This document shows, one piece after another, positions 7,201 to 59,625 of a stretch of 64,000 bases of DNA. Each line of letters begins with the position of its first letter. The stretch's first letter is position 1. The notes below the pieces were generated by a model that worked only from the letters and a program-made list of their open reading frames with translations, was not told the DNA's origin and did not search any database. Made by a program: the position numbers and the translations under genes. Source of the stretch: Candidatus Amarolinea dominans (lineage in GTDB: Bacteria > Chloroflexota > Anaerolineae > SSC4 > Amarolineaceae); the NCBI GenBank assembly GCA_016719785.1, contig JADJYJ010000010.1, positions 1 through 64,000 of the forward strand, written 5' to 3'.

Positions 7201-10200
7201 GGGCTGGCTGTTGATGGAGCCGGTCAGGGTCTTGCGGTTGGCGGAGAGGGTCAGCAGCAGCGGGAAGTTCTGCAGGCGGTTGGGGCCATCGTCCGCGTCA
7301 CCGCTGTCGTTGGCCGTCGCCCCGGCCGGCGCCAGGTCGAGGCCCAGGCTGTCGTTGGCGAAGATGCTGTTGACCGCGAAGGTGTTGGTCCGGCCAGAAT
7401 CGGCGAAGACGCCCGCCCCGGCGTTATGGGCGATGACATTGCCTTCGCCCGCTCCCGCGCCGCCGATGTCGTTCTCACTCGCGCCCAGGGTGAAGAAAAC
7501 GCCATGACCATCATTCCCCAGCGCGCTCGTTCCGTCCGCTGCGGCGCCGATGAAATTGCCTTGCACGGTATTTGTGGTTGCGCCCGGCCGCGTCAGTTGG
7601 ATGCCGTCCTCGCCGTTGCCGGAGATGACGTTGCCCGGCTGAGGGCCTGCGCCGCTGCGCGGCCCGCCGATGGTGTTGCCACTGGCGCTGTCAACGGCCA
7701 CGCCCGCACGGGTGTTGCCCAAACTGGCCGCGCCCACCGCGTCCGGGCCGATCAGGTTGCCCAGCACTTTGTTGCCACTGGCGGCCGTGCCATAGATGCC
7801 CACGCCGTTGCCGCTGTTGCCAGAGATGACATTGCCGGGCAGCGCGCCCGCCGGCGCCGCTGCTCCGCCGATGATGTTACCCGGCGCACCCTGCACGACG
7901 ACGCCATCACTCCCGTTGCTCAGAGCGACCGTGCCCGCCGCGTTCACGCCGATGGAATTGCCCAGCACCTTGTTGCCGCTGGCGCCCGCGCCTTCGATCT
8001 TCACACCCGCCTGGCCGTTGGCTGCAATCACGTTGCGCGGCGAGGCGATGCCGACCAACGTTTCGCCGCCGATGGTGTTGCCCGGCGCGCCTTGAAGATA
8101 GACGCCGTTCAGGCCGTTGCCCAGGGCCCGTGTGCCCGTCGCGTCCGTGCCAACCAGGTTGCCCCGCACGACATTGCCCATGGCATTGGGGCCGGCAATC
8201 GCAATGCCGTGCCCTTGCGCGCCGATCAGCCCGTTGCCGGAGATGGTGTTGCCCGGCGCCGACCCCATCACGGTCGTCTCCCGCCAATCGAATTGCGCGG
8301 CGCGTCGAAGATCTTCACGCCATTGGCCCCATTGCCCAGCACCCGCGCCCCGGTTCGATTCGGCCCGATGATGTTGCCCTGCACCCGGTTTTCCGCGGCG
8401 CCGCTCTGGATGGCGACGCCGTCGAGCATGTTGCCCGAAATGATGTTCTCGACGTCGAACCCCGTTCCGCCGATCTGATTGGTGTTCGTTCCCGCGTCCG
8501 TCAGCAGCACGCCGCTGAGCAGATTGGGCAGCGCGTTCTCACCGGCCAGGTCCGTGCCGATCAGGTTGCCCTGCACCGAGCTGTTGGCGGCGGCCAACGA
8601 GATGAGCACACCCACCCCGTGGCCTTCAGCGCCGTCGCCGTTGCCGGAGATCAGATTGCCCGCGAGCGCGGCCGGCGGGTTGTTCGACCCGCCGACGGTG
8701 TTGCCGGGCGCACCGGTGATCTCGACGCCGTGAAAGCCGTTGGGCAGCCGTCTGGCGCCGGTCGCGTCCGCGCCGATGATGTTCCCCAACAGCCTGTTGC
8801 GCGTGGCGCCGCCCGCCAGAATCACGCCGTCCTGCACGTTGCCGGAGATCAGATTGCCGGGCGCCGCGCCGCGGGTTGCCGTAGCCCCGCCAACCGTGTT
8901 GTCGTTCGCCGCGTTGATCTGCACCCCGCTGAGTCCGTTGCCCCTGGCCGTCGCGCCGGCCGCATCCGTGCCGATACGATTGCCGGCCACGGTATTTTGG
9001 GTGGCGCCGTTCTGCAGGCTGATGCCGTATTGGCCGTTCCCGGAAAGCACATTGCCTTCTCCGACGCCCGGCCCGCCGATGGTGTTCGTATTTGCCGCGT
9101 CCACGACCACGCCGCTCTGGCCGTTGCCCAATGCCGTCGTCCCGCTCGCGTCCATGCCAATCCTGTTGCCCTGCACCTTGTTGCGCGCTGCAGCCTCCGC
9201 CAGACGCACGCCGTCCTGACTGTTGGCCGCGATGATGTTGCCCTGGAACGCGGCCGACCCGCCGATGAGATTGAGATCGCTGCCCGCGCTGTAAACTGCC
9301 ACGCCGTGGCGTCCGTTGCCCAGTCGGGCGTTGGCGGTATTGACGCCGATGGCGTTGCCGTAAATGATGTTCTCTGCCGCGCCGTTCTGGATCGTCACGC
9401 CATCCAGCCCGTTGCCGACGATGATGTTGCCCCCATCAACCGCAACCCGCCCCACCTGGTTGGTGCGCGTGCCCGCGCCGTCCAAAATCACGCCGCTGAG
9501 CCGGTTGGGCCGCGCCAGCGTGGCGGTGGCGTCCGCGCCGATGACGTTGCCTTCGATTTTGTTCAGCGTCGAGCCGGCGCTGACGAACACGCCCACGCCG
9601 TTGCCCTGGCTGCCATCGCCGTTGCCCGCGATGACGTTGCCGGGCGCGCTGCCGGCGGGGTTGGCCGGCGCGCCGATGAAGTTGCTGGACGCGTTCTCGA
9701 GCGAGACGCCGTGCTGGCCGTTGCGCACCACCGTCGTGCCATCCGCGGCCAGGCCGATGAAGTTGCCGTAGATGCGGTTGCTGACCGCGCGATCGCTCAG
9801 CAGCACACCGCTGCGACCGTTGCCCGCAATCACGTTGCGCGACTCGCGATCCTCGCCGCCGACCAGGTTGGAGGCTGTGTCGGAACCAACCAGCGCGACG
9901 CCCGCGTTGCGGTTGCCCAGGTTGGCGCTCCCCGCGCTGTTCGTGCCAATCAGGTTGCCCTTGATTTCGACGCCGGTCGTGGTCCCGTGTAGAACAATGC
10001 CGACCCCACTGCCGGCCGCGGCGCTGCCGTTGGCCGCAATCACGTTGCCGGGCGGCGCCCGGCGTGGCGCTGCGCCCGCCGATGAAGTTGACGCCAGCGT
10101 CCGCCACCTCGATGCCGTGCAAATAGTTGCCCAGCGCTCCCCCGGCGCCGGTCAGGCCGATGAAGTTGCCCTGGACACGATTATCTCTGGCGCCGTTGCC

Positions 10201-11835
10201 GATCCACACGCCATCCAACTTGTTGCCGGAGATGACGTTGCCTTCGGCCGCGGTCGTCCCGCCGATCGTGTTTTCCCTGGCGCCGTTGATCTCGACCCCA
10301 TGGCCGGCGTTGCCCGGATCAGGGTGGGCGAACGGCACGGCGCCGATCAGGTTGCCGAGCACGTGATTGCCCGCCGATGTGCCCGAAATATGCACGCCGC
10401 TGCCGGCGTTGCCCGCGATCACGTTCTCCGCGCCGTCGGCCGTGCCGCCAACCTGGTTGTCGAAGCTATTCGCGATGGCGATGCCGGCGCTGCCGTTGCC
10501 CAGAAGCCCTGCGCCCCATTGCAGCCCAACTCTATTGCCCTGGATGCGGTTCCCGTTGGCGCCGGCATACAGATAGATGCCAACGTTCCCGTTGCCGGAG
10601 ACCACGTTGCCTTCCTCCTCCGTATCGCCGCCGATGTCGTTGCCGTTGGCGCCCTGGAACACGATGCCGTAGCTCGTGTTCGGCAGGGCGGCGAGGCCCG
10701 AGCTCGTCAAGCCGATCCCGTTGTTCTGAATAGAGACGCCCGCGGTCCCGTTGTAGAGCAAAACGCCATTGGTGTTGCCGGAGATCAGGTTTCCCTGTCC
10801 CTCCGCGGCCCCCCCTACGTAGTTCTCATTCGCGGCTTGAATGCTGACCCCCGCGCCAGGGCTGTTGCCTAGCGCCTGGTCGCCCGTCTTGTTCGTCCCC
10901 ACGTAGTTGCCATAGATCCGGTTGCCGGTCGTCGCGCCGTTGATGAACACGCCGGTATGGTTGGCGCTGATGACATTCCCCTCTACGCGGTTGTTGGGGG
11001 AGCCGCGAATCTCGATGCCCGAAAGCGCGTTGCCCTTCGCTTGCGTGCCGCTCAGACCAACGCCGATATAGTTGCCGGTAATGATGCTGCCGCCGCCGTC
11101 CAGAATGAAGATTCCAACCTGGAAGCGGTTGATCGCCAGCCCCTTCACCGTGGTGGAACCTGCCCGGATCTCAAGCCCATTGGCCTGGTAGGACGGGGTG
11201 CCGTCCAGCTCGATGACCGGGGCGCCGTTCCAGCCGGGCTGCGTGGTCGCGTCAATGGTCACCGGATCGGTGATGACCGGCAGCCCCGGCCCCTGCATGA
11301 AAATCGTGTGCGGCCCAGGCGGATCAATGGCAAAGGTGATGTCGTCGTGGCCGGGGTTGGCGTTGGCAAGATAAATGGCGGCGTAGAGCGAGTCTGGCCC
11401 GTCGGGGTTGGCGTTGCGCACGATGTAGCCCTGGGGCGCGGCAGATTGGGCGGCCGCTGGCTGCGTTGATTGAAGCGCCGAGAGCAGGCGCGCGGTCGCG
11501 GGAATGCCGCCAACGACCGTCGCGGCCCGAACGCCATCGGCCCAGGTTGAGGCGTAGGCGAGGGGCGCCGACGAGGAGACGACAACCGCGCCGGGCGCGG
11601 TCTTCTTCGACGCCGGCGCTGAAGCGCCGCGGACGACGAAGGTCGTCTGCAGGCCAGCGGGAGCCGGGATGGGTGCGGTTCGACGCGGCCCTTCCGCCGC
11701 AGACTGCGAACCTGCGGTGAATGTCAACATGAGGGAGATCGCCAGAGTAAAGGCAATGTGCCCGGCGCGGGCAGCCAGGCGCAGCAAGGTGTATCGCAGC
11801 GGCATGTATCTTATCATCGTGTTCATGATCACCAT
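4231..11835 (-). pseudogene. Giant (~2,500 aa) secreted parallel beta-helix (PbH1) repeat protein with Cna-B/CarboxypepD_reg-like domain, PT-rich linkers and a C-terminal CAP/SCP/PR-1 domain; split by about 4 frameshifts
   Basis: Five ORFs (9436-11835, 8268-10043, 6346-8271, 5814-6959, 4231-5757) continue one another across frame changes. The N-terminal signal peptide is followed by hundreds of GNxIGxxxxG.../NxIGG beta-helix turns. The CAP domain shows ...[13 protein letters not shown]... and ...YWAQDFG. TPT(A/R)TPT linkers separate the domains. Confidence 0.8.
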
Positions 11836-12150
11836 CTTTCCCAGGGCTTATGCTACACTCACTGCACAATCCGCCGTCGGTAGTTGCCGCGTATTTTGGA
11901 GTTGTTTGACAGAGCGATGAAGAAATCTGACTGCCTCATGGCGGCAGGCGGAAAGGAGCATTCTGTGTGAGAGATAATTTACGGACTTGTATAGCACTAA
12001 TACCGAATTAAGTCAAGTCGGGTTGGAGATGGACAGCAACCCCAAATGTGGGTTTTAGGCAGAATCGGCGCGGTTCGAGTGACTCCCACGATCCGGACCG
12101 GTGCAAGAAGGAGGAAAAGATGAAACACTCGCGCTCGAAGGCGATACACC

Positions 12151-12366: not shown

Positions 12367-12610
12367 GTATGCGTGCCGCCGTAACTGCTCAGCCAGGCAG
12401 TGAGAATGGTCTCGATAGCGCCCTTCGCGTCCTTGCGACTTGGCGTTATGGTTACAAACGACAAGAAGGTGGTGAAGAGAAGGGACTTGCACTTTGACAA
12501 TCGAATAGAACTTCCTATCTGTTTCGGGCGCAAGCGAGAACGCTGAAGTTACGGTGGCTGAAATGTGCTATCCTGAATAAAGTCATGAGGCGAAATTCAG
12601 GAGGCAGCCA

Positions 12611-12820: not shown

Positions 12821-14307
12821 AGAATGTCCCACCCACGAGGGTACGCCTTGCGAAAGGACTTGTATTTTCTGGACGAGGCGGTGAGCGGGGCGAAATTGGA
12901 TCGTCCGGCGCTGGATCGGTTACGAGACCGAGAAGGTGAAGGCTGTTACCAGGTGGTGATCTGCCTGAGTCCAGATCGGTTGGCAAGGGTGTACATGTTG
13001 CAGGTGCTTCTGCTGGAAGAATTTCGGCAAGCCGGGATACAAATGTTGTTTGTGAACCAGCCTCCGGTGAGCGATAGCCCGCAGAGCCAACTGTTGTTCG
13101 GCATTCAAGGGTTGTTTGCCGAGTATGAACGGGCTGTGATTGCCGAACGGATGCGGCGAGGGCGTCTGCATTGCGCACGTCAGGGAGCAATGGTCAACCC
13201 AAAGACCCCATATGGGTATGATTACGTGCCCAAAACAGGGAGGGAAGGCGGGCGTTGGGAAATCAATGCCGAAGAAGCCAGGGTCGTGCGTCAAATTTAC
13301 GCCTGGTATACCCAATCCGAGCCGATGACTATTCAAGAAATCACAGATCGCTTGAATCGAGACGGCCTCCAACCGCGTCGCGGGAAGTGCTGGCGCAGTA
13401 GCCTGATTGAAACATCCTGCGACAAACCCAATATACCGGATTGGCTTACTACAATCGCACCGAAAAGGTGTATCATGAGGTGGGGCGATTGCGTAAAATT
13501 GGGCATGGCAAGCGTCTTTGCCCGGTGAGTATGCTTCGCCCCACAGAAGAATGGATTGCCATTCCCGTCCCCAGCATTTTGGACAAGGATATCTGGCGCA
13601 TGGCACAAGAACGACTGAAAACGAACCAGCGATTCTCAATGCGCAACAATCGCAACCACCGCTATCTCCTGCGCGGCTTGTTGATTTGCGCCACTTTTAG
13701 CCATACACTCACCGCCCCGCTGGGAATGGCTATTTTTCCTGGCTGTGGCTATGGCGGTGTTCACCGTGCCCCCGATACGCCTGAGCATACCTGCCGCATT
13801 GACGGCAACACCGTTGAAACCCTGGTTTGGAACGCAGTGGTGGAGCTTTTGAAAAATCCCAAACTGATTTCCCAAGCGTGGGGCTGCGATGAAGCTGCCA
13901 ACATCGAGCAAGGTGAGAAAGAGCGGTTGGAAAATCGCTTGCGATCGCTCGACCGTCAGCAAGAACGTCTGCTGGACTTGTACCAAGATGAGCAGATCGA
14001 AAAGCCATCCTACCTGGTGCGCAAACAACGTCTGGATGAGGAGCAAAAAAACATTCAAACGCGCCTTCTGCAAATCGAGCAAGAGGCCAAGTCCGAACAA
14101 ATCAAGCAGGAATTGATCGAAGATTTCCAGCAATATTGCCAGCGTATCCAGGAAAACCTTGCAAATCCCAGCCCGGATTTACAACAGGAAGTGATTCGGT
14201 TGTTAATTGATCACGTTGTTGTCGGAAAAAATGAAATCGTGATCAAGCACATCGTCCCGACCGATGATGATTGTCGTTTGAAACCACAACGTCTTTGCGT
14301 TGAATAA
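12732..14307 (+). pseudogene. Large serine recombinase (resolvase domain + recombinase domain + zinc ribbon/coiled coil), split by two frameshifts
   Basis: GGAGG then ATG at 12732 gives MKQTAALYARVSTQRQ, with the catalytic Ser in the resolvase N-terminus. The frame changes at about 12830, where a GGG homopolymer sits. It continues in ORF 12824-13528 (VFVNQPP..., DRLNRDG) and changes again near 13440 into ORF 13441-14307 (AYYNRTEKV, Cys-containing zinc-ribbon region and a long coiled coil). Confidence 0.8.
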
Positions 14308-23415: not shown

Positions 23416-24246
23416 ATGGAGATCACGATTCGCCGTCTTTCGACGTTCGAGGAGTATATCGCGGCCGAGGAGCTGCAGCAGGTCTGCTGGCAGACCGACC
23501 CGATCGACGCGGTGCCGGCCCATCTGCTCTTGACCATTCAGAACGAGGCCGGGCTGGTACTGGGCGCATTCACGCCGCAGGGCGAATTGATCGGTTTTGT
23601 CTTCGGTTTCCTGGGCCGTGAAGGCGATGTGCTCAAGCACTGCTCGCACATGGCCGCGGTCCATCCGTATTATCGCGATCATAACCTGGGCTACCGCCTG
23701 AAACTGGCTCAGCGCAGCTTGATGCTGGAACAGGGGTTGGAGATCTGCACGTGGACCTACGATCCGTTGGAGGCGCGCAACGCGGTGCTCAACATCGCTA
23801 AGTTAGGGGCCACGGCGCGCATCTACAAGCGTAACATCTACGGCCAGCGCCTGGGCGGTCTCAATGCGGCCTTGCCGACGGACCGCTTTCATGTGCGCTG
23901 GGAAGTAAGCAGCGATCGCGCGCTGCACTGTGTGAGTACGGGCCAGCGCGTGATGGCGCCGGTCGCCGGCCAGCCCGAGCAGATGCTGACGCGGGTCATC
24001 ATGCAAGGCGACCTGCCGTTCCTGGCCGCCACCGGGCCGCTTCCTGCCGACGACATCATCGGCGTGCAAATTCCGTCCAGTTTCCAGCGCGTCAAGCGGG
24101 AGAATGTCGAGGCTGCCAGCCACTGGCGCCTGGGCACCCGCGCCCTCTTCGAAAACGCCTTCCGCGCCGGCTACACCGCCGTCAACGTCACCGCCGATGC
24201 CGAGCATCCAGAATCGCTGGCGGTGTATACGTTGGTGAGGGGGTAG
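23416..24246 (+). CDS. GNAT-family N-acetyltransferase (COG3375-like)
   Basis: Acetyl-CoA-binding-like core HCSHMAAVHPYYRDHNLGYRLK. Confidence 0.65.
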   Translation: MEITIRRLSTFEEYIAAEELQQVCWQTDPIDAVPAHLLLTIQNEAGLVLGAFTPQGELIGFVFGFLGREGDVLKHCSHMAAVHPYYRDHNLGYRLKLAQRSLMLEQGLEICTWTYDPLEARNAVLNIAKLGATARIYKRNIYGQRLGGLNAALPTDRFHVRWEVSSDRALHCVSTGQRVMAPVAGQPEQMLTRVIMQGDLPFLAATGPLPADDIIGVQIPSSFQRVKRENVEAASHWRLGTRALFENAFRAGYTAVNVTADAEHPESLAVYTLVRG

Positions 24247-24480
24247 TGCAAAGTGCAAAGTACAAAGTACATAGTGCAAAGTGCAGACGACGTTCCGCCC
24301 TGTTGTCAATGATGAATGCTGAATTCTGAATAGTGCATAGGACGTTCAGCATTCAGCTCTGAGCATTCAGCATTCAGCTCTGAGCATTCAGCATTCAGCT
24401 CTGAGCATTCAGCATTCAGCTCTGAGCATTCAGCATTCCACATTCAGCGTTTTGCACTTCGCACTTTGCACTTTGCACTT
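24247..24480. repeat. Compound repeat between convergent genes: 5x GCAAAGT heptamers, 4x 21-bp unit (gagcattcagcattcagctct), then the inverted heptamer array
   Basis: Read directly: gtgcaaagtgcaaagtacaaagtacatagtgcaaagtgca ... (gagcattcagcattcagctct)x4 ... gttttgcacttcgcactttgcactttgcactt. Confidence 0.85.
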
Positions 24481-24483
24481 CCC

Positions 24484-27335: not shown

Positions 27336-27390
27336 GAGAGACTGAGAGACTGAGAGATTGAGAGATTGAGAGATTGAGAGATTGAGATCG
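27336..27390. repeat. 8-bp tandem repeat (gagagact/gagagatt, about 7 copies) in the 5' leader of the GH gene
   Basis: gagagactgagagactgagagattgagagattgagagattgagagattgagatcg, 15-70 nt upstream of the start codon. Confidence 0.85.
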
Positions 27391-30800: not shown

Positions 30801-30899
30801 CCGATGGAAATCTGATGGAAATCCGATGGAAATCCGATGGAAATCCGATGGAAATCCGATGGAAATCCGATGGAAATCCGATGGAAATCGGCGGAAACC
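30801..30899. repeat. 11-bp tandem repeat CCGATGGAAAT x8 (plus a degenerate 9th) in the divergent intergenic region
   Basis: ccgatggaaatctgatggaaat(ccgatggaaat)x6cggcggaaacc. Confidence 0.9.
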
Positions 30900-34160: not shown

Positions 34161-36687
34161 TCAGAACCAACGATCCAGCATGAAAAAGTTCCATGCGTGT
34201 GTGATGTCCGTCAACCCCAGGACACGGAATCGAACACCGAGCGCAGCCCCGCGATTTCCGATGCTGACATCTGACCAGCTATTGCGCCAATCGCCATGAA
34301 ATTGCGTGATTTCGCGCCCCGTGTTGAGCAAACTGCCGCCCGGGCCGTACTCCGCCCCCATGGTCAGCGCCCAAGCCCAATGATGCACATTCGCATCGTC
34401 ATCTGAGGTGCCCATGAACGAGGCAGGCAACCCCTGCCGATCAAAATAAACCCAGGTCCGTATGGGATTCCCTGCATTGCTGACCGCCGGCCAAGCGTTT
34501 GGCGCTTCCAAGCGATTGGCTAGACCTCCGAACAGGCTACCAATGTCTCTGGTGAACATACCCTCTTCGCCAGCTTTGTACCAACCGGTCAAGCGTTCCA
34601 GCGCGCTTGGCATGTCATTCCATGACCAGTTAGCAGGTCGGTTGTCTCGGAATACGCTCTCCAGGTTTCCCTGGACGTAGTTACCGTCAGCGTCGTAGAA
34701 GACTGACCAATTCCACTCGCCAGGAAAGGCTATCGAGAACAGACGAATCAAAATGTCTTCGGCCGTCGGCGCACGATGATGCATCTGCTCAAATTCGTCT
34801 TGCCACGCCTGATCCAACGGGTCGTGGCCTGATGGATCGATAAAGCGTAGAGGATTATTCCGGCAGTAAGAGTAGCGATTGAGATTTTGCGGATCGCCAG
34901 GATTGGGTATAATGCTGTCGGGTTGGATCCACCGGTTAAGATAAGGGTCGTAGTATCTGGCGTTGTAGAAATACAACCCAATGCTCGCATCCTCGCGTTG
35001 ACCCGTGAACCGGTAGGTCGTCGGCGTCGCGCCGACGGGCGTCCCTCGATTCTCACCCCACGGCTTGTACCACAACTCCCCCGTGCGCTCACCGCTGGCG
35101 CCATTGGCCGTCACCGTCGTGCTACCCAGGTGATCGCGCAACAGCCAGTACAACACCCCCGCCACGCGCACGGCCACCCGCTGACCGTTGAAATAGTAGT
35201 ATTTCGTGTGCGTCGTCGCGCCGCCAACCACCTTCTTCTCGTACAGGTTGCCGATCGTGGTGACCGTCTCCCCGTTCATCACGCTCTTGACCCGGTTCCC
35301 ATCCGCGTCATACACGAAGCTCGCCGTTGCTGCCCCGCTGATGCTGACCAGGCGATTCTCGTCATCATACGTCAGGGTGTAGGTGTTCCCCCCGATCGTG
35401 CGCCGCCGCATGTTGCCGTTCTGATCGTAACAGTAACTGCTGCCGTTGCTTGTGCTCACCACCGCATGCTTCTTCACCAACGCACCTTCCGGGCAACTGC
35501 CCGCCTGCGCCACCCCGTAGCTGTACGTCCCCTGCCCCGTCTTGCTGATCAGGTTGCCCGCATTGTTGTAGCTGTAGCTCTCATCGTACACCCAGCTCCC
35601 GGTCCCATCGTCGTAGCCCGCGCAAATCGCATCACCCGTGAAGCCGCGCAACAACCGATCCAACCCGTCGTAGCTGAAGCACTGCCGCTGACCGCTATTG
35701 CGCGCATCCACGATCCAGCGCACATTGCCGGCCGTATCGTAGCCATACGTCAAGTCCTGCAAACTGCTGGCATCCGCCGACGTTCCTGCCTTCACCTTCT
35801 GCAGGCGCCCCAGTCCGCCGCTCGCTGTCCAGGGATGGTAGGTGAACGCCATCTGCACCACCGGATTGTTGTTGGTGCTCTGCTTGCCCAGCTTCAACTG
35901 CGTCAGCCTTCCGGCCTCATCATACACCGCATTCCCGCTGCGCACATAATCCACACTGCTGTACATCCGCCCCGGCAGCCCCTGCGCTGTGTACGCCACG
36001 TTGACCGTCTCCGCACTCTGGGTCGGGTAAACCACCCGCAGCACCCGGTCCGCCGAATCATAGGTGTAACCGAGGGTGTACGCCTCCCCATCAATCGTGT
36101 GCGTTTCCGCCGTCACCCGCCCGCGCTTGTCGTATGTCCAACTCGCGCTGTTGTTGACTTCGCCGCCCACATACGCCCTCATCCCGGTGCGCCGACCCTT
36201 GCCGAACTGCGTGGCCCCATCGAACGCATCATAGCTGTAATCGGCCAACACCATCCCGCTGCTGCTGCCGCTCTGCCATTTCTGCGTCAGCCGGTTCCAG
36301 TCCGTCATAGCCAAACCCTATCGTGACATTCCGCGCATCGGTCTGCGCCACCAGGTTCCCGGCCGTGTCGTACGTGTAACTCCACGCACCCATGTCCGGG
36401 TCGTTCATACTCGTCTTGCGCCCCAGCAGGTCGTACGTGATCGTCGTCACCGCCCCATCCGGCCCGGTCATCTGCAGCAGCCGGTCGGCGATGTCGTAAG
36501 CATAGGTCGTCACCCCGTTCGCATTCGCATTCCAGGCCGGCGTCGGACACGTGGCCGTGCCGCTGCCCAGTCGGTCGCCAGCCAGCGGGCGCGGGCGGGG
36601 CGGGGGGCTCGGGGCGCTTTGCGCTGATACCGTCGTCGCCAGAGTGGTAACAAGCATCAACTCTGCCGTGCAAAAAGGGGACATCAA
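34161..36687 (-). pseudogene. RHS/YD-repeat protein (about 840 aa) with signal peptide and about 240-aa C-terminal domain; one frameshift at about 36300
   Basis: ORF 36229-36687 carries the signal peptide and the first YD repeats, and ORF 34161-36314 carries the rest. The core ends ...YRFTGQREDASIGLYFYNARYYDPYLNRWIQPD...RFIDPSGHDP, followed by the C-terminal domain. Confidence 0.8.
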
Positions 36688-36765
36688 ACACCTCCTCTAC
36701 CCTAGATAACGCTACTTTATCACAGCGTTACTTTACCCAACTTTGGTAGTGGTGTCCAGTCCTCA

Positions 36766-37177
36766 TTTCACATCGTACGGTGTCAAATCGAGCAGATTCA
36801 GAGGAATCCACCCTTCAAGAGAACCTGAGGATTTGACAAAGGCCCAGAATTCTTGATCGGTATTTGACCAGGCAAAGTCCCAAATGGTAACTTCTTTGTA
36901 GCATGGCAGAACCCCCAACAGATTACCTCTGTCACCCATGTATGCACTGTTTGGATCTGAAGGCTTGACACCGGGCAGTTCCCAGATACTAATCCCGCCT
37001 GGATCTAATTTCGGATCCCCTGTACATCCAATACTCGCCTTTTTTGGCAGTACTTGTAGTTCGTGTGGTGTTGTTGGTGTTCTCTCGGGGAGGGGTCGGT
37101 TGAGGCGATATCAAGGCGCATCCGTTCAGCGTCAACATAAATAAACACATCGTTATGGTCAATATGGTATTCAGCAT
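36766..37177 (-). pseudogene. Small lipoprotein starting 4 nt after the giant RHS stop (candidate immunity protein), frameshifted
   Basis: MLNTILTITMCLFMLTLNGC lipobox in ORF 36989-37270. After a frame change near 37000 it continues ...GCTGDPKLDPGGISIWELPGVK...WIPLNLLDLTPYDVK* to 36766. Low-GC region. Confidence 0.45.
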
Positions 37178-37181
37178 GGCG

Positions 37182-40100
37182 CTACCTCGCCCACGGCTGA
37201 AAGTAGTACCATGGCACACGATGACCAGGCGAGTTGCTCGCCCAAAGCCCGGATCGCGCATCCACAGCATAAGTCACGGCCAAGCCAACCTCTGCCATGC
37301 TGATGATTCCATCATACAACATGGACCCGTGGCTTACCGCCACATACCCCAAGTTCAGATCGGGATTACTCAACTCGCTGAGAGGGCCATCTCGAAGCCA
37401 ATTGCTGGCGTAACCAGCAGCTGGCCCAAAGAAATACCCCAGGTAAAAAAGTCCTGCGTAATGATGGCTTGGATTGGGGTCATCAACCAATGATGCTCTC
37501 CAGTTGGCTGTGCCTTCGAAGAGAGGTTCATATTGGGCCCATGCAGCGCCAGGGTTGGTTGCCATCTGCCAGGCTGCAGGGATGGCATGGCCAAGCGGTA
37601 CACCTCCCCAAATAAAACCAATGGCTTGGGCGTATAATCCTTCCTCGCCGGGTGCATAATACGAGGCCAGTTGTTGAAGATGAGTAACAAAACGATCCAG
37701 TCCTGCAGATGGAGCGCCTTGCCATGATGTGCTACCTTCCCAGAGTCCTTCCCTATTGGCGTGATACCTTGTCCAATCCTCATCTGTCCACGAACCGTTA
37801 GCCCCACTGCCGGCAAACAAGATCGAAAAGAACCGATCTCGGCGATCTTGGTCAGTTGGCGCACGATCATGCGCGGCGTAGAAGGCTTGCTCCCACGCAG
37901 CATCTATGGGGTCAAATCCACTCGGATCCACAAAACGTAAAGGTCGGTTCCCGACATAGCTGTACCGATTCAAACTTTGCGGATCTTTGCGGCTGGGGAA
38001 TGATCGTATCCGCGGCGAGGAATCGCCCGATGACCGGGTCATACCATCGCGCCTGGTAGAACAGCAACCCTGATCCACTATCCCGCCGCTGCCCCGTGAA
38101 GTTGAACGTCGTCGGCGTCGTGCCCGCCGTGTAACGCGGCGCGCCGTAGGGGTAGTAGCGAATCTCGGTGTTGGTGTTCAACCGATTCCCCGCGCTGTCC
38201 AGCGTCAGCGCGGTGGAGCCGAGATGATCCGTCAGCAGATAGTAGAGTACACCGCCGCTGTTCTCCGCCACGCGTGCGGCGCCAGCGTAATAGTACTTCT
38301 TGACCGTCCCGTTGTCTACTTCGTAAGTGTTCCCTACGAAGACCCGGGTCGCGCCGCTGATGGTCTCCTTGACCCGGTTGCCGTCGCCGTCGTACACGTA
38401 ACTCGCCGTCACGCCCCCGGACATCGCAGTCAGCCGATTCTCCGCGTCGTAGGTCAACGTGATGTCCTGGCTGCCGCTGATGCGCCGGGTGGCGTTGCCA
38501 TTCTGGTCGTACCAGTATTTCTGATAGCCTGCCGTCGTGCCCCCGACATGGGTCACAGCATGCTTGTGTGCGCCATTCTGATAGTAGAGGTTCGTGCCTG
38601 TGCTCTCGAAATTGGTGATGTTGCCCGCATTGCTGTAGGCGTAATTGCGCTGGCTGTAAGCTCCGTAGTTTCCATTGTTGGCAACGCAGGTCCCCCCGCT
38701 CAGCGTGCATGCCGTTTGCAGACGATCCAGTCTGTCATACGTGAAGCGCAGCGCCTGGCTCCCGCCGTACGCCGCCGCATCCGTAATCGTCAGCACGTTG
38801 CCCGCATCATCGTACGTGTAGCTGATGTTCTGCCGGTTATCGTAGTTCGGACTCGTGCCTGCCTTCAGGCTCAGCAGGCGGAAGTTCTCGGCCGCACTGT
38901 AGGCGTACAGTTGTTTCACCACCCCGGTCGTGCTGCCCAGCCAGCGTTCCATCACCTGCCCGCGTTCGTTGTACTGCGTCTTGCCGACATAGTAGGTGCT
39001 GCCGTTGCTGCGCACTGTGTTCAGCAACCCCTGCGTCGTGTACGCATAGTGTACCTGCTCGCCAATCTGACTCGCACTGCCGCCGGGGTATTTCATCCAC
39101 AGCGGCCGATCCGCCGAGTCGTATCCCCACTGTGTCACGAAGGTTCCGCCGCCCGTTCCGTTGATGGCCTTGCTCTCCTGCGTTACCCGTCCGCGGCCGT
39201 CGTAGGTCCAACTCGCGCTGCCGGAGCTGTCGCTCATCCCGGTGCGTCTCCCCTTGCCGGTTGTGCCGCTGTCATACGTGTAACCCACCGCCGTCGCACT
39301 GCATCCACTCGACCCGCTGTAGGTCTTGCCCTTCACCCGGTTGAGGCCATCGTAGCTGAAGGTGATGACGCAACCCCGCGCATCGGTCTGCGTCTGCAGA
39401 TTGCCCGCCGTATCGTAGGTGTAGCTCCACGCACCCATGTCCGGGTCGCTCATGCTGGTCTTGCGGCCGGCCAGGTCGTACCCGATCGTCGTCACCGCCC
39501 CGTCCGGCCCCGTCATCTGCTTCAGCCGGTCGGCCACATCGTAGCTGTAGCTGGCCTGCCCGTAGACCGTCGCTCCCCAGTTCGGCGCAGCCCCCGGCGC
39601 CAGCGTCAGATCATACTGCTTGACACTCGCCAACCGCCCAAAGGCATCGCTCTCCGAGATCGTCTGGTGGTTCAGCTCGTCCAGCATCGCCGTCTGTCGA
39701 TTCTGGTAGTAGGTGCGCACGGTGCTGCCGTCCGCCTGCGTGACCTGCGTCACCCGCCCCAACCGATCGGACGTTGACTGCGTCGCGGCCAGCCCACTCC
39801 AGTTCACCGCCTGGTACGTCACTCCGCTCACCGTACTCGTGTACGGCGCCGAGGCCGCCGCCAGGTTGCCCAGCCCATCGTAGCGCTGGCTCACCAGGCT
39901 CCACTGGCTGCTGCTGTACTCCTTCTGCACCTGCCGCACGCGCCCCAACCCATCGTAGAACGTGCGCTCCTCCAGGTAGGTCGCACTCGCGCTGGCGTCG
40001 CCATTCCCATCATCGCGCAGCAAATGCCGCTGCACATACAACCCCTGGTCCGTCGTGTAGACAATCTTCTCCGTCGCCGGGTTGCTGAACCCCGCCCCCG

Positions 40101-43100
40101 GCTTACGCACCTCCGTCAGCCGGCCAAACGTATCGTACGTATAGAGCGTGACCGCCTCGTTGGCGTCGGTCTCGCTCTGTATTTGTCCCACCAACCCGCT
40201 GCCCCCGCCGTCGCATTCATGCCGTAGCGCGATGGTCGTCGTCAGCGTCGCGCCGCCCAACTGACAGGCCTGCACCGTTACGCTCATCGCATAGGCATGA
40301 AACGTGCTGTCGAAGGCCGTCGTGACCACGCTGCCATTGGCCGCCGTCTCGCTCCAACGGTTGCCCCATTGGTCATAGCCGTAAGCCGTCGACCGCATCC
40401 AGTTCGCGTCACACCCCGTGCCGCCCTGTCCCGCCTGCCACACCTCTCTCACCTGCCCAGCCGTCGGCGCCTGGTTGTACGCCGCATAGCCGCTGTAGTT
40501 GTCGTAGATGGTGCGCGTCTGCCCCTGGCATGTCCCGCTTTCGCTCCCCGCGAACAGCTTCTCCTCCGCCACCCGATTGACGATGTAGGTCGTGCCGTCA
40601 TTGCGTGGGGAATAGACCCGCTTGATCGTTCGGTATGGTATCGTTGGCGCGGCCTCGCTGTATAGCCGGGTCAACAGCAGATTGCCATACGCCGCATCGT
40701 AGGTGTTGACGCTTTTGGTGTAACGCAGCGGCGGGTCCGTGCCGTTGGGGTCCACAACGTATTCGGTCTTGTCTTGCAGATAGACGAAGTGCATCCCGCC
40801 CGGCGTCCCCACGCTGGTCTCGTTCCAGGTCTGCAGCGAACGCGCCAGCAAGTTGTTGGTGACGCCCAAACCCGCACGCGTCTCTGTCTTGGACAGCTTG
40901 CCTTTCCAGCGGTGCTGATTGGTCGTGGTGTGGAACCACTGCTTCAGCCGCGTGTCCGGCTGACCGCTGCCGATCAAGGCGCCGCTCCCTACCAGCGTCA
41001 TTTCCGCTTCGGCAAAGCCCCCCGCCTCGTTGTCCCAGGTCGTCGTGTACCAGTAGCTCGTCACGATGTCCGGATCGCTCCCGCCCCCACGCCGCCGCTC
41101 CTGCTGCACCACCATTCCGCCGCTCGAACCGCCGTACGTAACCTCCACCCGTCCCTGGTAGCCGTTGTTCACCGTCACCATGTGCCCATCCGTCGTGCCG
41201 CTCCCGTAGGTGTAGCTGGTTGGCGGCAGCGCATTGCTGCCGGTCCCATAGTGCGTGATCGTACTCAAGTACAGCCGGCTCTGCGACGGCGCCGCCGGGT
41301 TGATGAACGCCGTCATGCCCAACACCAGTTTGTGCAGCAGCGTATTGTTGGCCATCACCTCCACCCGCTGCAGGTACTTTCGTGTCCAGAAAACCTGGTA
41401 GCCGGTCTCGTCGAAGTGCTGAGCCCGGTCCTCCCGGTTCAGATAGAATAGCTTCAGCTTGAAGGCGCCGTTTGGCCCATAGCTGATCTCCTTCACCCGC
41501 ACCGCACGCACCTGGATGCGCGCATCGGCCGTGTAGTCGCGGTTCCAACAGTCTGCCGGCACATTCACCGCCAACAACGAACCCTCATAGTCATAGCTGA
41601 ACGTCAGACGATTAGGCGTCGTTGGCGTGGTGTCGCGCACCTCGGTCAACACCCACTTGGTGAAGCGATGCACCACCCGCAGTTCCGAAGGCGTCCAGTC
41701 TCCATTGCTGCAATCGCGCACATACAGCGCCGGCTCGAAGTGATAGGTAATGCCGCCCTCGGTCGTCACCTCCCACACCAGGTTGTCCCGGTTGTACAGC
41801 GCCGGCGTCTGGGGCAGATCAATCGTCTTGAAGGGCGTCGGCGTACTGGGGTCAAAACTTCCATCGACTGGATAGTCAGGGTTGGAAGCGGTGGGCCGGC
41901 GAATCTTCAGGAAGGGGTCCTGCACGCTGTAGAAAATCTCGCCGTGTTTCTCCAATTCATGGGTCACGCCGTTCAGGGTCAGGTGTACTTTCCCATGCCG
42001 TCTGGAGTCAAATCGTGCAGGATGTAGCTCAACCCACCGATGTCCCAGCCCCACCCGGCCAGTTGATGATGACCGGCGCCGGCCAGGCTGCGGCTGCTAT
42101 AGTCCAGGCTTAGCCCAGGCGCCAGTCCGCCCGGCCCCGGCGGCGCTGCGATCGGGTAGCTCACGGTCCAGGCCCCGTTGTACAACTGCGACTGCACCCC
42201 TTCGATCCCCGGCGCAGGCTCTGGCACAATGGCGTTGCCTTGCGCAAACAGCGTCAAATGGGTCAGGGTGGTGATCAGCCGCCTTTGCTCCTGATCCATG
42301 CTCGTTGGCAAGACCACCCAACGCCCGTCGGCCGCATCCTGGAAGAACAGCGAAGCGCCCGGTGGCCAGGGCGTTTGCTCATCGCCAGCCGCCGGATCGC
42401 GATAGCGCAGCGTCAACCCCACCGCAAACTGTGTCACCGGCAGTCCCGACATCTCCGTGGCGCTCAACTCGAACAGGAAATCAAGGTTCGCCGGCTGATC
42501 GGGATCGCTCTCGTGCGGGTGTAGCGCACCAGGGTCGGTGCGCTGACCGTACCAGCCGGAATCGTGAGCACCACCCGCCCATCGCTGCTCTGCAACCGGC
42601 TCTCCTGATCAGGCATCACCCACACCTCATCCGGCCCCGGCCCCGGCGTCCAGGTGGCGTCGGCGTCGGCGTACACCCCTCATCATCCTGGCAGGGGTGA
42701 CGGTGCAGCCGTCGGCGTTGGCGTCGCCGTCGGCGTCCAGGTGGCGGTCGGCGTTGGCGTCACTCCTCATCCTCGGTGGCGTGGCCGTCGGCGTCGGTGT
42801 ACACTCCTCATCCTGGCAGGGCGGCGGCTCGGCCGTCGGCGTGGCGGTCGGCGGTTCGGCCGTGGGCGTCGGCGCGCAGTCCTCGCCCAGGCAGGGCGCC
42901 GCGGTGATCGTGATCGCAGCGCTGGCCGTCACCCCTGCGCCCACCTCCTCGCTCACGATGGCCGCGGTGTTGGTGATGACCTGCCCGCTGACCGCACCCA
43001 GCGCCTGCGCCTGGAACGTGCCGGTCAGCGTCGCGCCCGCGGCCAGTTGGCCGATGACCCACTCCAGCCGGCGCTCGGCCTCCAGGTAGCTGAAATCCCC

Positions 43101-43322
43101 CTCCCCGGCCGGCCAATAGGCCAGCTCCAGCGGCAGGGTATCGCTCACCACCAGCCCGCTCAGGGCGCGGTCGGCCAGGGTGTTGGTGATGACCACGGTG
43201 TAGGTGACCACCCCGGCCGGCTCGACCTGCCGCGGTGCCGCGGCCAGCGTCAACTGCACCGGCGCAGGCGCGGGCGTCGCACCAGGATCGGAAATGAGAT
43301 CGAAATTGGGATCAGGGGACAT
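37182..43322 (-). pseudogene. Giant (about 2,040 aa) RHS/YD-repeat polymorphic-toxin-like protein: DUF11/CARDB-like domain, PT linker, SpvB-like N-terminal region, YD repeats, RHS core, about 270-aa C-terminal domain; about 4 frameshifts
   Basis: Pieces 42627-43322 (DUF11, TPTPTATP), 42464-42676, 41979-42467 (GWGWDIGGLSYI) and 37912-42054 (dozens of YD repeats; YYYAGAARV...LTDHLGSTAL...FTGQRRDSGSGLLFYQARWYDPVIGRF). These are followed by 37182-38078 (PxxxxDPSGFDP then the C-terminal domain). The shift at about 42005 occurs in a gggaaag run. Confidence 0.85.
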
Positions 43323-43345: not shown

Positions 43346-43357
43346 GGGGGGGGGGGG
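43346..43357. repeat. Homopolymeric G12 tract (C12 on the RHS coding strand) about 25 bp upstream of the giant RHS start
   Basis: tatctggggggggggggtagcagc. Confidence 0.85.
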
Positions 43358-43726
43358 GTAGCAGCAGCCGCCGTGGAAAAGAGCAGGCTGAATACTACCA
43401 ACAGATGAACCAACGACGACAGGCGCGGCGCGAGCCGGCCGCGAGCAGAATGTCGAGAAGAGAGGAGAGAGAAAGTAGAACACCAGCGTAACATGACAAC
43501 GGACTCCTTTCGTGCAGCAATCGAAACGGCTGGGGTCAGGGACATTTTCCTGACTGCTGTAAGGAGGTCGCGGGCGGGAGAGAGAACTCTCGCCGGGGAC
43601 TTCCGACGGCGGGAGACGACTCGGAAGGCGGGGGGCATGCTTGTGGCTGGTCACAGCATACCACGCGCGCGGCGATCTGTCAAGAGGCAAATTCGGGTGA
43701 CGACAGGGAGTCACGAAGGAACCAAG

Positions 43727-43952
43727 GAATACTCCTTTGTGTCTTGGCGTCCCTGTGTGACCAAGAAAGAAATCTCACACAAAGACACGAAGAACACAAA
43801 GGAATCAGAGAATACTCCTTTGTGTCTTGGCGTCCCTGTGTGAGCAAATCCCGTTAACGCAAAAGACGCCAGAGGCGCAGGAGACGCAAGGGTTACTTGA
43901 AAACCCTTTGCGTCCCGGCGTCTTGGCGTCCCGGCACCCCGGCGTTGAAAAA
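43727..43952. repeat. Cluster of short GC-rich repeats (core TTGGCGYCCC): a 34-bp direct repeat x2 plus a 70-bp element related to 59547-59594
   Basis: gaatactcctttgtgtcttggcgtccctgtgtga occurs at 43727 and 43811. gagacgcaagggttacttgaaaaccctttgcgtcccggcgtcttggcgtcccggcaccccggcgttgaaaaa compares with gagacgcaagggctttttcttggcgccccggcgccccggcgttaaaat at 59547. Confidence 0.75.
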
Positions 43953-43961
43953 ATGGAACTA

Positions 43962-44576
43962 TCAGGCCATTGCGGCTGCGAAGCGCTTGCTGACCTCGTC
44001 CCAGTTGACGGTGTTCCACCACGCGGCCAGGTAGTCGGGCCGGCGGTTCTGATACTTCAGGTAGTAGGCATGTTCCCACACGTCAATGCCCAGGATCGGG
44101 GTGTGCCCGTCCATCAGGGGGCTGTCCTGGTTGGCTGTGCTATAGGCGGCGAGCTTGTGCTTGCCGTCCACCACTAGCCATGACCAGCCGCTGCCAAAAC
44201 GGGTAACGCCGTTCTGCGTGACCTTGGTCTTGAAATCGGCAAAGCTGTTGAACGTGCCGGCAATGGCCTCGGCCAGCGCGCCGGTCGGTTCCCCGCGGCC
44301 GCCGGGAGCCATGATCTCCCAAAATAGCTTGTGATTGTGATGCCCGCCGCCGTTGTTGCGCACAGCCGTGCGGATGCTCTCCGGCACGCCGGCGATCTCA
44401 GCCAGCAGGGCCTCCAGCGGTTTCTCGGCCAGTTCGGGCGCATTGGCCAGCGCGTTGTTCAGGTTGGTGACATAGGCCTGATGATGCTTGTCGTGGTGAA
44501 TCTGCATCGTCAGTTCATCAATGAATGGTTCCAGTGCGTTGTATGCATAGGGTAAAGGTGGAAGCGTATGAGCCAT
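43962..44576 (-). CDS. sodA: Fe/Mn superoxide dismutase
   Basis: [10 protein letters not shown], a GGGHHNH-containing helix, and [18 protein letters not shown], which is the metal-ligand Asp/His signature. Confidence 0.9.
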
Positions 44577-44805
44577 CGGTGATTTCTCCTTCGTTCTGTT
44601 TTCTTTCGTGATTGTTCGGAACAGCCATCATTTTACTACAATGCGCCGGTGTTGTCAACTTTAGCAACACTAATGTTGCTTTACTCGCAATCAGATAGAG
44701 CCTTTGCGCCCTCGCGTCTTCGCGTTGAAATATCTTCCCGTCAGCAAACCATGCTCCGCCGCGGACAGCGCCGTCACGCCGGAGGCGTGACCTACGGGGG
44801 GAGCG

Positions 44806-58142: not shown

Positions 58143-58340
58143 GGCTTGTCCTCCTCAGATCAGAATGTCGCAAATCAATCGGTCGCCCAACCGGGCGGTT
58201 ATGATGGGCGGCAGTTCCATCATAACCTAACCCGGCCAAGCCGGGATCGAACAGGATGATCTCTGCCACGAATTTTCACGAATTGGCCCCTTTGCCTTCG
58301 TGAGCATGGTTCAGACGATCCAAGGTAATGCAACTGAATG

Positions 58341-59484: not shown

Positions 59485-59546
59485 ACGCTGCGGTCGCGCA
59501 AGGAGCGTTGGGCAAGCGGACTCTAACGCAAGGGCGCAAAGGTGCA

Positions 59547-59594
59547 GAGACGCAAGGGCTTTTTCTTGGCGCCCCGGCGCCCCGGCGTTAAAAT
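59547..59594. repeat. Intergenic GC-rich repeat related to the 43880-43952 element
   Basis: gagacgcaagggctttttcttggcgccccggcgccccggcgttaaaat. Confidence 0.65.
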
Positions 59595-59625
59595 CGGCAT
59601 CGCCCCTCGCGGCAGATGCCCCTCA

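Follow-up and report, generated by a model that had tools for sequence, protein, structure and literature searches.

A cluster of three hairpin-forming octamer-array repeats between sodA and an RHS operon in Candidatus Amarolinea dominans

Candidatus Amarolinea dominans, a filamentous bacterium of activated sludge (lineage given as Chloroflexota, Caldilineales), carries a repeat-dense spacer between sodA and an operon coding for CLIPPER (DUF11) and RHS proteins. We analyzed this spacer within positions 1 to 64,000 of contig JADJYJ010000010.1 (assembly GCA_016719785.1), a 64-kb stretch of DNA referred to here as the window. The repeats are three hairpin-forming members of a species-specific interspersed repeat family, ordinary in kind, and occupy the gap from the stop codon of sodA to the autonomous promoter of the CLIPPER/RHS operon. 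We lean toward the explanation that they form a cluster similar to bacterial interspersed mosaic elements (BIMEs), built from an octamer-array family that resembles the short tandemly repeated repetitive (STRR) sequences of cyanobacteria, in which the first hairpin would serve as the sodA terminator and the other two as insulators. From the sequence, we infer that termination or insulation is the most probable activity of the cluster on the sodA transcript, and that its repeat units are subject to slippage.

Three hairpins between sodA and the RHS promoter

All relevant genes of the sodA-RHS region lie on the minus strand, in the order sodA, the three hairpins (hp1 to hp3), a near-consensus sigma-70 promoter, a leader of ∼150 nucleotides (nt), the Shine-Dalgarno (SD) sequence and ATG of a signal peptide, and the CLIPPER/RHS operon. 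The first repeats appear 10 to 16 nt past the sodA stop codon. The features on which the argument rests are as follows.

43858 to 43952, minus strand: hp1, 27 to 28 pairs with a closing stem AACGC...GCGTT; −42 to −49 kcal/mol, z = −4.3.
43774 to 43844, minus strand: hp2, a 71-nt near-perfect palindrome with 30 pairs, including 4 G-U pairs; −43.8 kcal/mol, z = −8.9.
43700 to 43758, minus strand: hp3, weaker, 21 to 22 pairs.
43810 to 43843: distal copy of the 34-nt exact direct repeat GAATACTCCTTTGTGTCTTGGCGTCCCTGTGTGA, the 5' arm of hp2 on the minus strand.
43727 to 43760: promoter-proximal copy of the same 34-nt repeat, the purine-rich 5' arm and loop edge of hp3 on the minus strand.
43962 to 44576, minus strand: sodA, an open reading frame (ORF) for an Fe/Mn superoxide dismutase of 204 amino acids (aa); Pfam Sod_Fe_N and Sod_Fe_C were matched on an identical product.
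43655 to 43683, minus strand: predicted sigma-70 promoter of the CLIPPER/RHS operon, TTGACA-17-TATGCT with TG before the −10 element (extended −10), a 10/12 match.
43495 to 43648, minus strand: the true 5' leader (∼150 nt), common to paralogous loci by alignment and free of octamer repeats.

Read on the minus strand from 43960 to 43700, the sequence folded into three successive long imperfect hairpins with stems of 21 to 30 bp. The predicted folding energy of the whole 276 nt was −120.7 kcal/mol, compared with −82 kcal/mol for shuffled sequences (z = −8.2). The plus strand folded almost as well because the hairpins are palindromes at the level of the DNA; for hp2, it gave 25 pairs and −33.9 kcal/mol. 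Both arms of hp1 are octamer arrays, and hp1 is the copy related to a site at 59.5 kb. On the minus strand, UUUUUU stands before it and UCUUUUGCGUU after it, and a terminator scan returned a terminator-like match at 43878 to 43866, with the tail CTTTTGCGTT, on the 3' side of hp1 and on the sodA strand. In the case of hp2, ATTT stands on either side of the palindrome. The 5' arm and loop of hp3 duplicate those of hp2, and its 3' arm has diverged and is one unit shorter; together, hp2 and hp3 make up a local tandem duplication (83 nt) of a GTG-rich variant. The pyrimidine-rich arms are runs of the degenerate octamer CYTKGYGY (complement RCRCMARG), with a periodicity of 8 to 9 nt. Tandem Repeats Finder reported periods of 8, 9, and 16 nt at 43777 to 43945 and at 59568 to 59587.

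An earlier sequence-only reading of this DNA had drawn attention to a 34-bp direct repeat, four copies of a TTGGCGYCCC core, flanking short inverted repeats, and an element that recurs at 59.5 kb. The sequence features of note exist and are far beyond chance. Both copies of the direct repeat are exact and constitute the 5' arms of hp2 and hp3; moreover, the 34 nt are the core of a 53-nt direct repeat with 91% identity and a spacing of 83 nt (blastn E = 6e-14). TTGGCGYCCC had 4 matches in the window versus 0.74 expected, a count reached by 1 of 100 shuffles; three of these matches fall in the sodA-RHS region and one at 59566. The region holds three exact copies of TTGGCGTCCC (43744, 43827, and 43923), but the supposed fourth is either the variant TTTGCGTCCC (43907) or TTGGCGCCCC at 59566. 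The short inverted repeats are present as sequences, but they are really the tips of the three hairpins, which measure 65 to 95 nt. Recurrence at 59.5 kb was borne out by a 29-nt degenerate pattern that matched only at 43922 to 43950 and 59565 to 59593 in the window (0 expected), and by GAGACGCAAGGG, which is exact in both sites. The likeness extends further: in a pairwise alignment, 43858 to 43952 resembled ∼59517 to 59596, with the 59.5-kb site differing mainly by an internal deletion of ∼28 nt.

An identical SodA protein was found on 22 contigs, and the same spacer was present in eight assemblies. Among these eight, no variable site was observed in 43715 to 43935, versus 11 of 615 in sodA and 22 of 167 in the leader. 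Variation within the repeats was limited to one single-nucleotide polymorphism (SNP) in hp3 and to the base of hp1, where the 8-nt unit GGGGTGCC is present or absent between strains, which suggests unit slippage. In a second lineage (contigs L002 and L010), 97.5% identity runs through sodA, and homology ends precisely with the stop codon, which places the hairpin cluster on a synteny breakpoint that borders the variable RHS region. In the second lineage, sodA is followed by a canonical terminator (a hairpin and T run) and then by unrelated genes; since this terminator takes the place of the cluster, hp1 to hp3 are the sole candidates for a sodA terminator in the lineage of the window.

The predicted RHS promoter lies 17 nt downstream of hp3 in the direction of transcription and was kept in the strains as well as in two paralogous CLIPPER-RHS loci on other contigs of the same species (L123 and L124). 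These loci share the promoter, leader, SD sequence, ATG, and signal peptide at ∼90 to 95% identity as judged by eye. Their homology to the window starts ∼8 nt upstream of the −35 element and runs through the leader, SD sequence, and ATG, so that the repeats fall outside the RHS transcript. The comparison confirms the predicted promoter as the start of a conserved expression module, outside which the repeats lie. This cassette of promoter, leader, and signal peptide is found in at least three CLIPPER/RHS loci (43495 to 43683 in the window, 3213 to 3405 in L123, and 9813 to 10003 in L124).

These observations bear on a reading in which RHS expression is under the control of the spacer, be it as a structured leader acting in cis, a riboswitch-like RNA, or a separate small RNA. 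The predicted structure is indeed very stable, hp2 folds 10 kcal/mol better on the sense strand of the operon, and a long RHS transcript that arose by read-through from sodA might in principle include the hairpins. However, the repeats precede the promoter, form no part of the promoter-leader module conserved in the paralogs, do not follow sodA in the related lineage, and are not found in this form at the paralogous RHS loci. An Rfam search of the region returned no family at its gathering score, only miRNA-precursor hairpin noise at E ≤ 10, and no promoter was predicted for an independent small RNA. We regard control by such an RNA as very improbable, and the structured leader proposed earlier fails on these grounds. 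Nor is the noncoding part ∼640 bp long, as had been stated: a conserved SD sequence (AAGGAG, 43509 to 43504, minus strand) and ATG (43494 to 43492) open a signal-peptide frame (MLRWCSTFSLLSS...LVHLLVVFSLLFSTAAAATPPPP), and the noncoding spacer from sodA to this ATG amounts to about 467 nt. In a contig from a related metagenome-assembled genome (MAG; L001), the signal-peptide frame is continuous with a CLIPPER (DUF11) domain protein in a gene of 476 aa.

A dispersed family of octamer arrays

An arm of the family consists of 3 to 5 units of the degenerate 8- to 9-nt CYTKGYGY, and members of the GCG type end in GCGTTRAA. Two facing arms give a long imperfect hairpin, as in hp1 and in the 59.5-kb site (site B). 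Arrays with the GCGTTRAA ending are hp1 (two arms) and the following four sites.

59517 to 59596: site B, the second two-armed member, a hairpin between convergent histidine-phosphatase and ABC-ATPase genes.
44697 to 44731, plus strand: site C, a single arm CCTTTGCG CCCTCGCG TCTTCGCG TTGAAA (E = 9e-8).
12415 to 12452, plus strand: site D, a single arm CCCTTCGCG TCCTTGCG ACTTGGCG TTATGG in an intergenic spacer (E = 3e-6).
1743 to 1781 of contig L124: site F, a single arm.

The seven arms aligned to (YYYKGCG-YC)x3, followed by an invariant GCGTT and then RAA. A profile of these arms recovered the member loci and their orthologs with nhmmer (E ∼1e-8 to 2e-5) and gave one weaker second match inside hp1 (E = 1e-3); no further convincing members were found in ∼40 kb of additional Amarolinea sequence. 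In the window, the octamer was enriched twofold (90 matches; shuffles, 45 ± 6.4), and there were 3 clusters of at least three octamers versus 0.02 expected; a regular expression calling for at least three units at 8- to 9-nt spacing likewise matched 3 sites versus 0.02 expected. Control DNA from other bacteria (629 kb) contained 0.69 octamer matches per kb and no cluster. Altogether, ∼105 kb of Amarolinea DNA contained at least five intergenic loci with arrays, a density of about one per 20 kb; a genome-wide density would be an extrapolation from these ∼105 kb.

Site B was kept in every strain seen (L007, L115, and L125 to L127), with one SNP in L126. Site C follows the preceding gene and comes 39 nt before the −35 element of sodA. 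It has an ortholog in the 97.5%-identical L002 lineage, where two adjacent units carry a parallel C/G difference, which may be a sign of concerted evolution of the units. Upstream of the paralogous promoter in L123 and L124 stands a hairpin with the same vocabulary (ACACAAAG, GCGCAAAG, and GACGCC) that is not alignable with the cluster. Just downstream of site D, a segment of lower GC content (12824 to 14307) contains an apparent frameshifted large serine recombinase (ORFs 12824 to 13528 and 13441 to 14307), as judged by its frames and a C-terminal motif; this suggests an integrated mobile element.

Searches of wider collections returned little. A genome collection scanned with GAGACGCAAGGGN{4,34}TCTTGGCGYCCCGG gave 0 matches; it contains neither the species nor near relatives, and a SodA-based scan of it found nothing closer than 70% identity. 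Among 31 matches to TTGGCGYCCCGGCRCCCCGG in a metagenome scan, L115 alone is an ortholog of site B; L121 is a possible distant relative, and the others were rejected as coincidental low-complexity (GGCGCCCC)n sequence. Scans of a viral collection and BLAST searches against phages found nothing. BLAST against plasmids gave a sole match of 44 nt, which we judged to be a low-complexity coincidence; it fell in an octamer array that precedes parAB on a plasmid of Pseudomonas. On that plasmid (Pseudomonas sp. BYT-5 plasmid pBYT5-1, contig L122, 1477 to 1535), an exact array of (GGAACGCC)x3(GGGACGCC)x4-5 precedes a parA-like ATPase gene and parB, and is probably a plasmid centromere or operator.

Comparison with known repeats and candidate roles

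The sequence-only reading had taken the repeats for a REP-like intergenic family. A dispersed intergenic family does exist, but the defining features of repetitive extragenic palindromes (REPs) are absent. A REP unit is a palindrome of 20 to 40 bp with a stem of 5 to 13 bp, a loop of 2 to 20 nt, and an unpaired GTAG or CGTC tag (PMC3733652). The hairpins described here measure 65 to 95 nt with 21 to 30 pairs, and the single arms C, D, and F are nonpalindromic octamer arrays. No GTAG head was found, CGTC/GACG occurs only inside paired stems, and the conserved terminus is GCGTTRAA. Membership in the REP class therefore fails on both the short palindromic unit and the unpaired tag. REPs number tens to thousands of copies per genome, and here at least five loci are known from the ∼105 kb. 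No RAYT gene (IS200/IS605-like) was evident beside the sites examined, although no search aimed at Y1 transposases was made. The likeness to proteobacterial REPs and BIMEs is one of arrangement: the repeats are interspersed and strictly intergenic, are found singly or in head-to-head dimers or clusters, which form larger hairpins, and stand at 3' gene ends or between convergent genes, with termination and mRNA stabilization as proposed roles. The BIME pattern is seen in form only, since the units are not REPs: the octamer strands alternate as ++--++ / -++ in 43735 to 43929, and the three hairpins directly follow the sodA stop codon.

In filamentous cyanobacteria, STRR sequences consist of 7-bp units in tandem; they form hairpins in the spaces between genes, and a role in stabilizing transcripts has been suspected (PMC2670836). 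Similar to these, the octamer arrays are intergenic, built in tandem from short units and able to form hairpins, the host is filamentous, and several families occur in one genome (here, arrays with units of 7, 8, 10, and 11 nt). In contrast to STRR heptamers, the units are degenerate and 8 to 9 nt long, their sequences are unrelated, the arms carry the conserved nonrepeat terminus GCGTTRAA, and the host belongs to the Chloroflexota. The octamer family is an analog of STRR sequences and not a member, and BIME clusters and hairpin-forming STRR arrays are its closest analogs.

Two further groups share some of these traits. Pneumococcal BOX elements, Neisseria Correia/NEMIS elements, and ERIC sequences are modular intergenic repeats of 60 to 150 nt with variable internal copy number that can affect termination, processing, or promoters. 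They resemble the present family in their strong hairpin potential in spacers and 3' untranslated regions and in a number of modules that varies between copies and strains. However, there is no sequence similarity and no defined terminal inverted repeat with a consistent target duplication, and the ∼five loci seen here are far more degenerate. Intrinsic terminators of high-GC bacteria include U-tract-poor "I-shaped" and tandem hairpins. Like a terminator, hp1 is GC rich, directly follows a stop codon, and has a U-rich tail, with more hairpins in tandem behind it. Terminators are, however, normally unrelated in sequence between loci, whereas the present elements share blocks of 26 to 29 nt, and arms C, D, and F cannot terminate.

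Against this background, the BIME-like cluster of STRR-like arrays remains the explanation we prefer, if only by a modest degree of confidence. According to it, hp1, with its strong stem and the following UCUUUUGCGUU, would be both the intrinsic terminator of sodA and a hairpin that protects the 3' end of its transcript, and hp2 and hp3 would be back-up terminators insulating the toxin operon from read-through. The RHS operon would be driven by the promoter at 43683 to 43655, with a leader that excludes the repeats, and the arrays would gain and lose whole units by slippage. The position of site B between convergent genes counts for a terminator role.

Several points weigh against this explanation. 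Site B has no U tract and gave no terminator match on either strand, and the single arms of sites C, D, and F cannot fold by themselves; therefore, terminator function cannot explain the whole family. In L123, the octamer-type hairpin stands upstream of the paralogous promoter between divergent genes, so that no terminator is needed there. The asymmetry in fold energy favors the sodA sense strand in hp2 and the opposite relative orientation in the L123 hairpin; being inconsistent between loci, it is not evidence of selection at the RNA level. The comparison of hp1 and site B for compensatory changes comprised just these two sequences, whose hairpins pair in different registers. Measured against the synonymous rate of sodA, the invariance of the cluster among strains is only modestly significant (∼4 variable sites expected, 0 seen), and the high variability of the leader looks like gene conversion from paralogs. 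Single arms that cannot fold, a site B without a U tract, and settings and orientations that differ from copy to copy make slippage-prone repetitive DNA a better account of the family as a whole than any one function.

A rival explanation is that the cluster is selfish or neutral repetitive DNA, arisen by insertions like those of miniature inverted-repeat transposable elements (MITEs) and by local slippage, and without function for the host, at a recombination-prone junction between sodA and the variable RHS island. The ATTT on both sides of the 71-nt hp2 palindrome resembles a target-site duplication, the cluster sits exactly at the synteny breakpoint, and several MAG contigs end in or beside it. 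Single arms are scattered over varied contexts, and unrelated hairpins of short tandem repeats occupy other spacers of the same genome. On the other hand, no second full copy of hp2 exists in the ∼105 kb of Amarolinea DNA, its sole other copy being the adjacent partial hp3. One 26-nt pattern of the hp2/hp3 arm had no match in the viral collection, the genome and metagenome collections being scanned with no hp2-specific pattern. In addition, the cluster is more conserved than its flanks, and no transposase is adjacent. We consider a functionless origin rather unlikely; neutrality and a terminator as by-product are, moreover, not mutually exclusive.

The proposal that the motifs are binding sites of a regulator fared less well. 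In this case, the octamer arrays would be operators or insulator sites for a protein recognizing contiguous 8-bp repeats, with the cluster regulating the RHS promoter and site C regulating sodA. The 34-nt repeats lie 83 bp apart (∼8 helical turns) and end 17 to 50 nt upstream of the −35 element. Both independent versions of the promoter (that of the window and that of L123/L124) have an octamer-cluster hairpin ∼20 to 120 bp upstream of −35, site C precedes the sodA −35 element at the distance given above, and the cluster does not vary among strains. Operators built of contiguous short repeats are known, such as the omega-repressor heptads, and a (GGRACGCC)x8 array lies upstream of parA/parB on pBYT5-1. 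Yet this plasmid match is the 44-nt coincidence described above, site B, flanked by convergent genes, has no gene to regulate, and the orientation of the arrays relative to the nearest promoter differs by site. The elements upstream of the paralogous promoters are alike in vocabulary only and not homologous in sequence, perfect-register hairpins of 30 bp are unusual for operators, and no candidate binding protein was identified. Given these inconsistencies in position and orientation, regulator binding sites are disfavored, and we consider them distinctly unlikely.

Five other candidates were rejected. A CRISPR array remnant does not fit two direct copies only, whose "spacer" is the complementary hairpin arm, and no cas gene was among the called genes. 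A ToxI-like array (type III antitoxin) is at odds with the promoter between the repeats and the downstream genes, and no toxN-like gene was among the called genes. An invertible promoter was discarded since no inverted repeats flank the promoter, and DNA-uptake sequences since the motif is far too rare and absent from coding DNA. DnaA-box and CRP/FNR-type sites were dismissed since no match to their consensus sequences was found.

Surrounding loci and implications

Downstream of the leader, the signal-peptide frame of the RHS operon runs into a homopolymer.

43346 to 43358, minus strand: poly-C(13) tract in the coding region of the signal peptide and N terminus, which in this assembly breaks the frame before the CLIPPER-domain ORF at 43322 to 42627.

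The length of this tract differs among contigs. It is 13 and out of frame in the window; 11, without the following AG and in frame, in the 476-aa gene of L001 (∼11230); 16 in L006; 6C+T+9C in the Illumina contig L004; 9 in L123 (3565 to 3573); and, by implication, 12 in P0002. A tract is also present in L124 (∼10181). These differences could be slipped-strand phase variation of a toxin or surface operon, or homopolymer errors in long-read MAGs. The CT-rich part of the signal-peptide coding sequence shows variable tandem expansions of ∼20- to 23-nt units, such as CTACTTTCTCTTTTCTCTCYCC (L005, ∼11095 to 11170; L123, 3420 to 3470; L124, 10020 to 10085), which vary from strain to strain and between paralogs and throw some gene calls out of frame. 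In L003 and L005, the same promoter, leader, and signal-peptide cassette is fused to a Tricorn/PD40 and M23 peptidase pair; its occurrence on differing cargo suggests recombination inside the signal-peptide region that swaps the downstream cargo. A more far-reaching idea would tie these elements together: the CYTKGYGY arrays would be sites of a dedicated protein (for example, of the ribbon-helix-helix or nucleoid-associated type) that marks or insulates the promoters of paralogous, recombining RHS toxin operons, and polymorphic toxins would be expressed from a single switchable module made up of the cluster, the cassette, and the variable poly-C tract. We rate this as highly unlikely.

The "giant RHS" of the sequence-only reading (34161 to 43322, minus strand) is broken into ORFs at 43322 to 42627, 42467 to 41979, 42054 to 37912, 38078 to 37182, 36687 to 36229, and 36314 to 34161, and is followed by further RHS C-terminal cassettes. 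The frame breaks reflect either pseudogenization or assembly frameshifts; other large genes of the window are similarly broken, for example, at 6346 to 11847. Upstream of sodA, an inverted repeat at 44640 to 44690 (GTGTTGTCAAC-TTTAG-CAACAC) overlaps the −35 element, with a third TGTTGC half-site nearby. It is kept in all strains and in the 97.5%-identical lineage, and is a plausible candidate operator for a redox or metal regulator of sodA.

Several other short-unit repeats were observed in the same genome. A 237-nt nested hairpin of heptamer arrays (AGTGCAA / TTCAGCA / TTGCACT) exactly fills the spacer between convergent genes at 24245 to 24481. Six copies of AGTGCAA face four of TTGCACT around 4.5 copies of an inner 21-nt unit, TTCAGCATTCAGCTCTGAGCA, giving ∼−100 kcal/mol on either strand; the architecture is like that of the hp cluster, and the sequence family is different. 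Tandem arrays were also found just upstream of a gene start ((GAGAGATT)x6.5, 27336 to 27387), in a divergent promoter region ((CCGATGGAAAT)x8, 30801 to 30889), and across the stop codon of one ABC-ATPase gene and the annotated start of the next ((AATGAAGGCC)x5, 60431 to 60376, minus strand), where each unit contains ATG and GAAGG. A second dispersed family consists of CACGAATT(G) units (58262 to 58290 in the window; 2995 to 3063 in L123; 9548 to 9663 in L124). It forms hairpins with 28-bp arms upstream of the paralogous RHS promoters in L123 and L124, and its short copy in the window lies near the histidine-phosphatase gene.

The significance of the cluster is mostly local: with it, an interspersed repeat family not described before is recorded for Candidatus Amarolinea, a filament that is abundant in wastewater plants and causes bulking. 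For annotation, it follows that the sodA-RHS spacer is not an RNA leader, and the real promoter/leader module, common to several RHS toxin loci, has been located. A synteny breakpoint and the ends of contigs in short-read MAGs fall at the repeats, which could be used as markers for strain typing in the manner of STRR or REP fingerprinting. If the hairpins do terminate transcription, they would represent repeat-derived terminators in the Chloroflexota, a phylum whose terminator rules are poorly known. Finally, STRR-like, hairpin-forming arrays of short units in a filamentous organism that is not a cyanobacterium are a mildly interesting evolutionary parallel.

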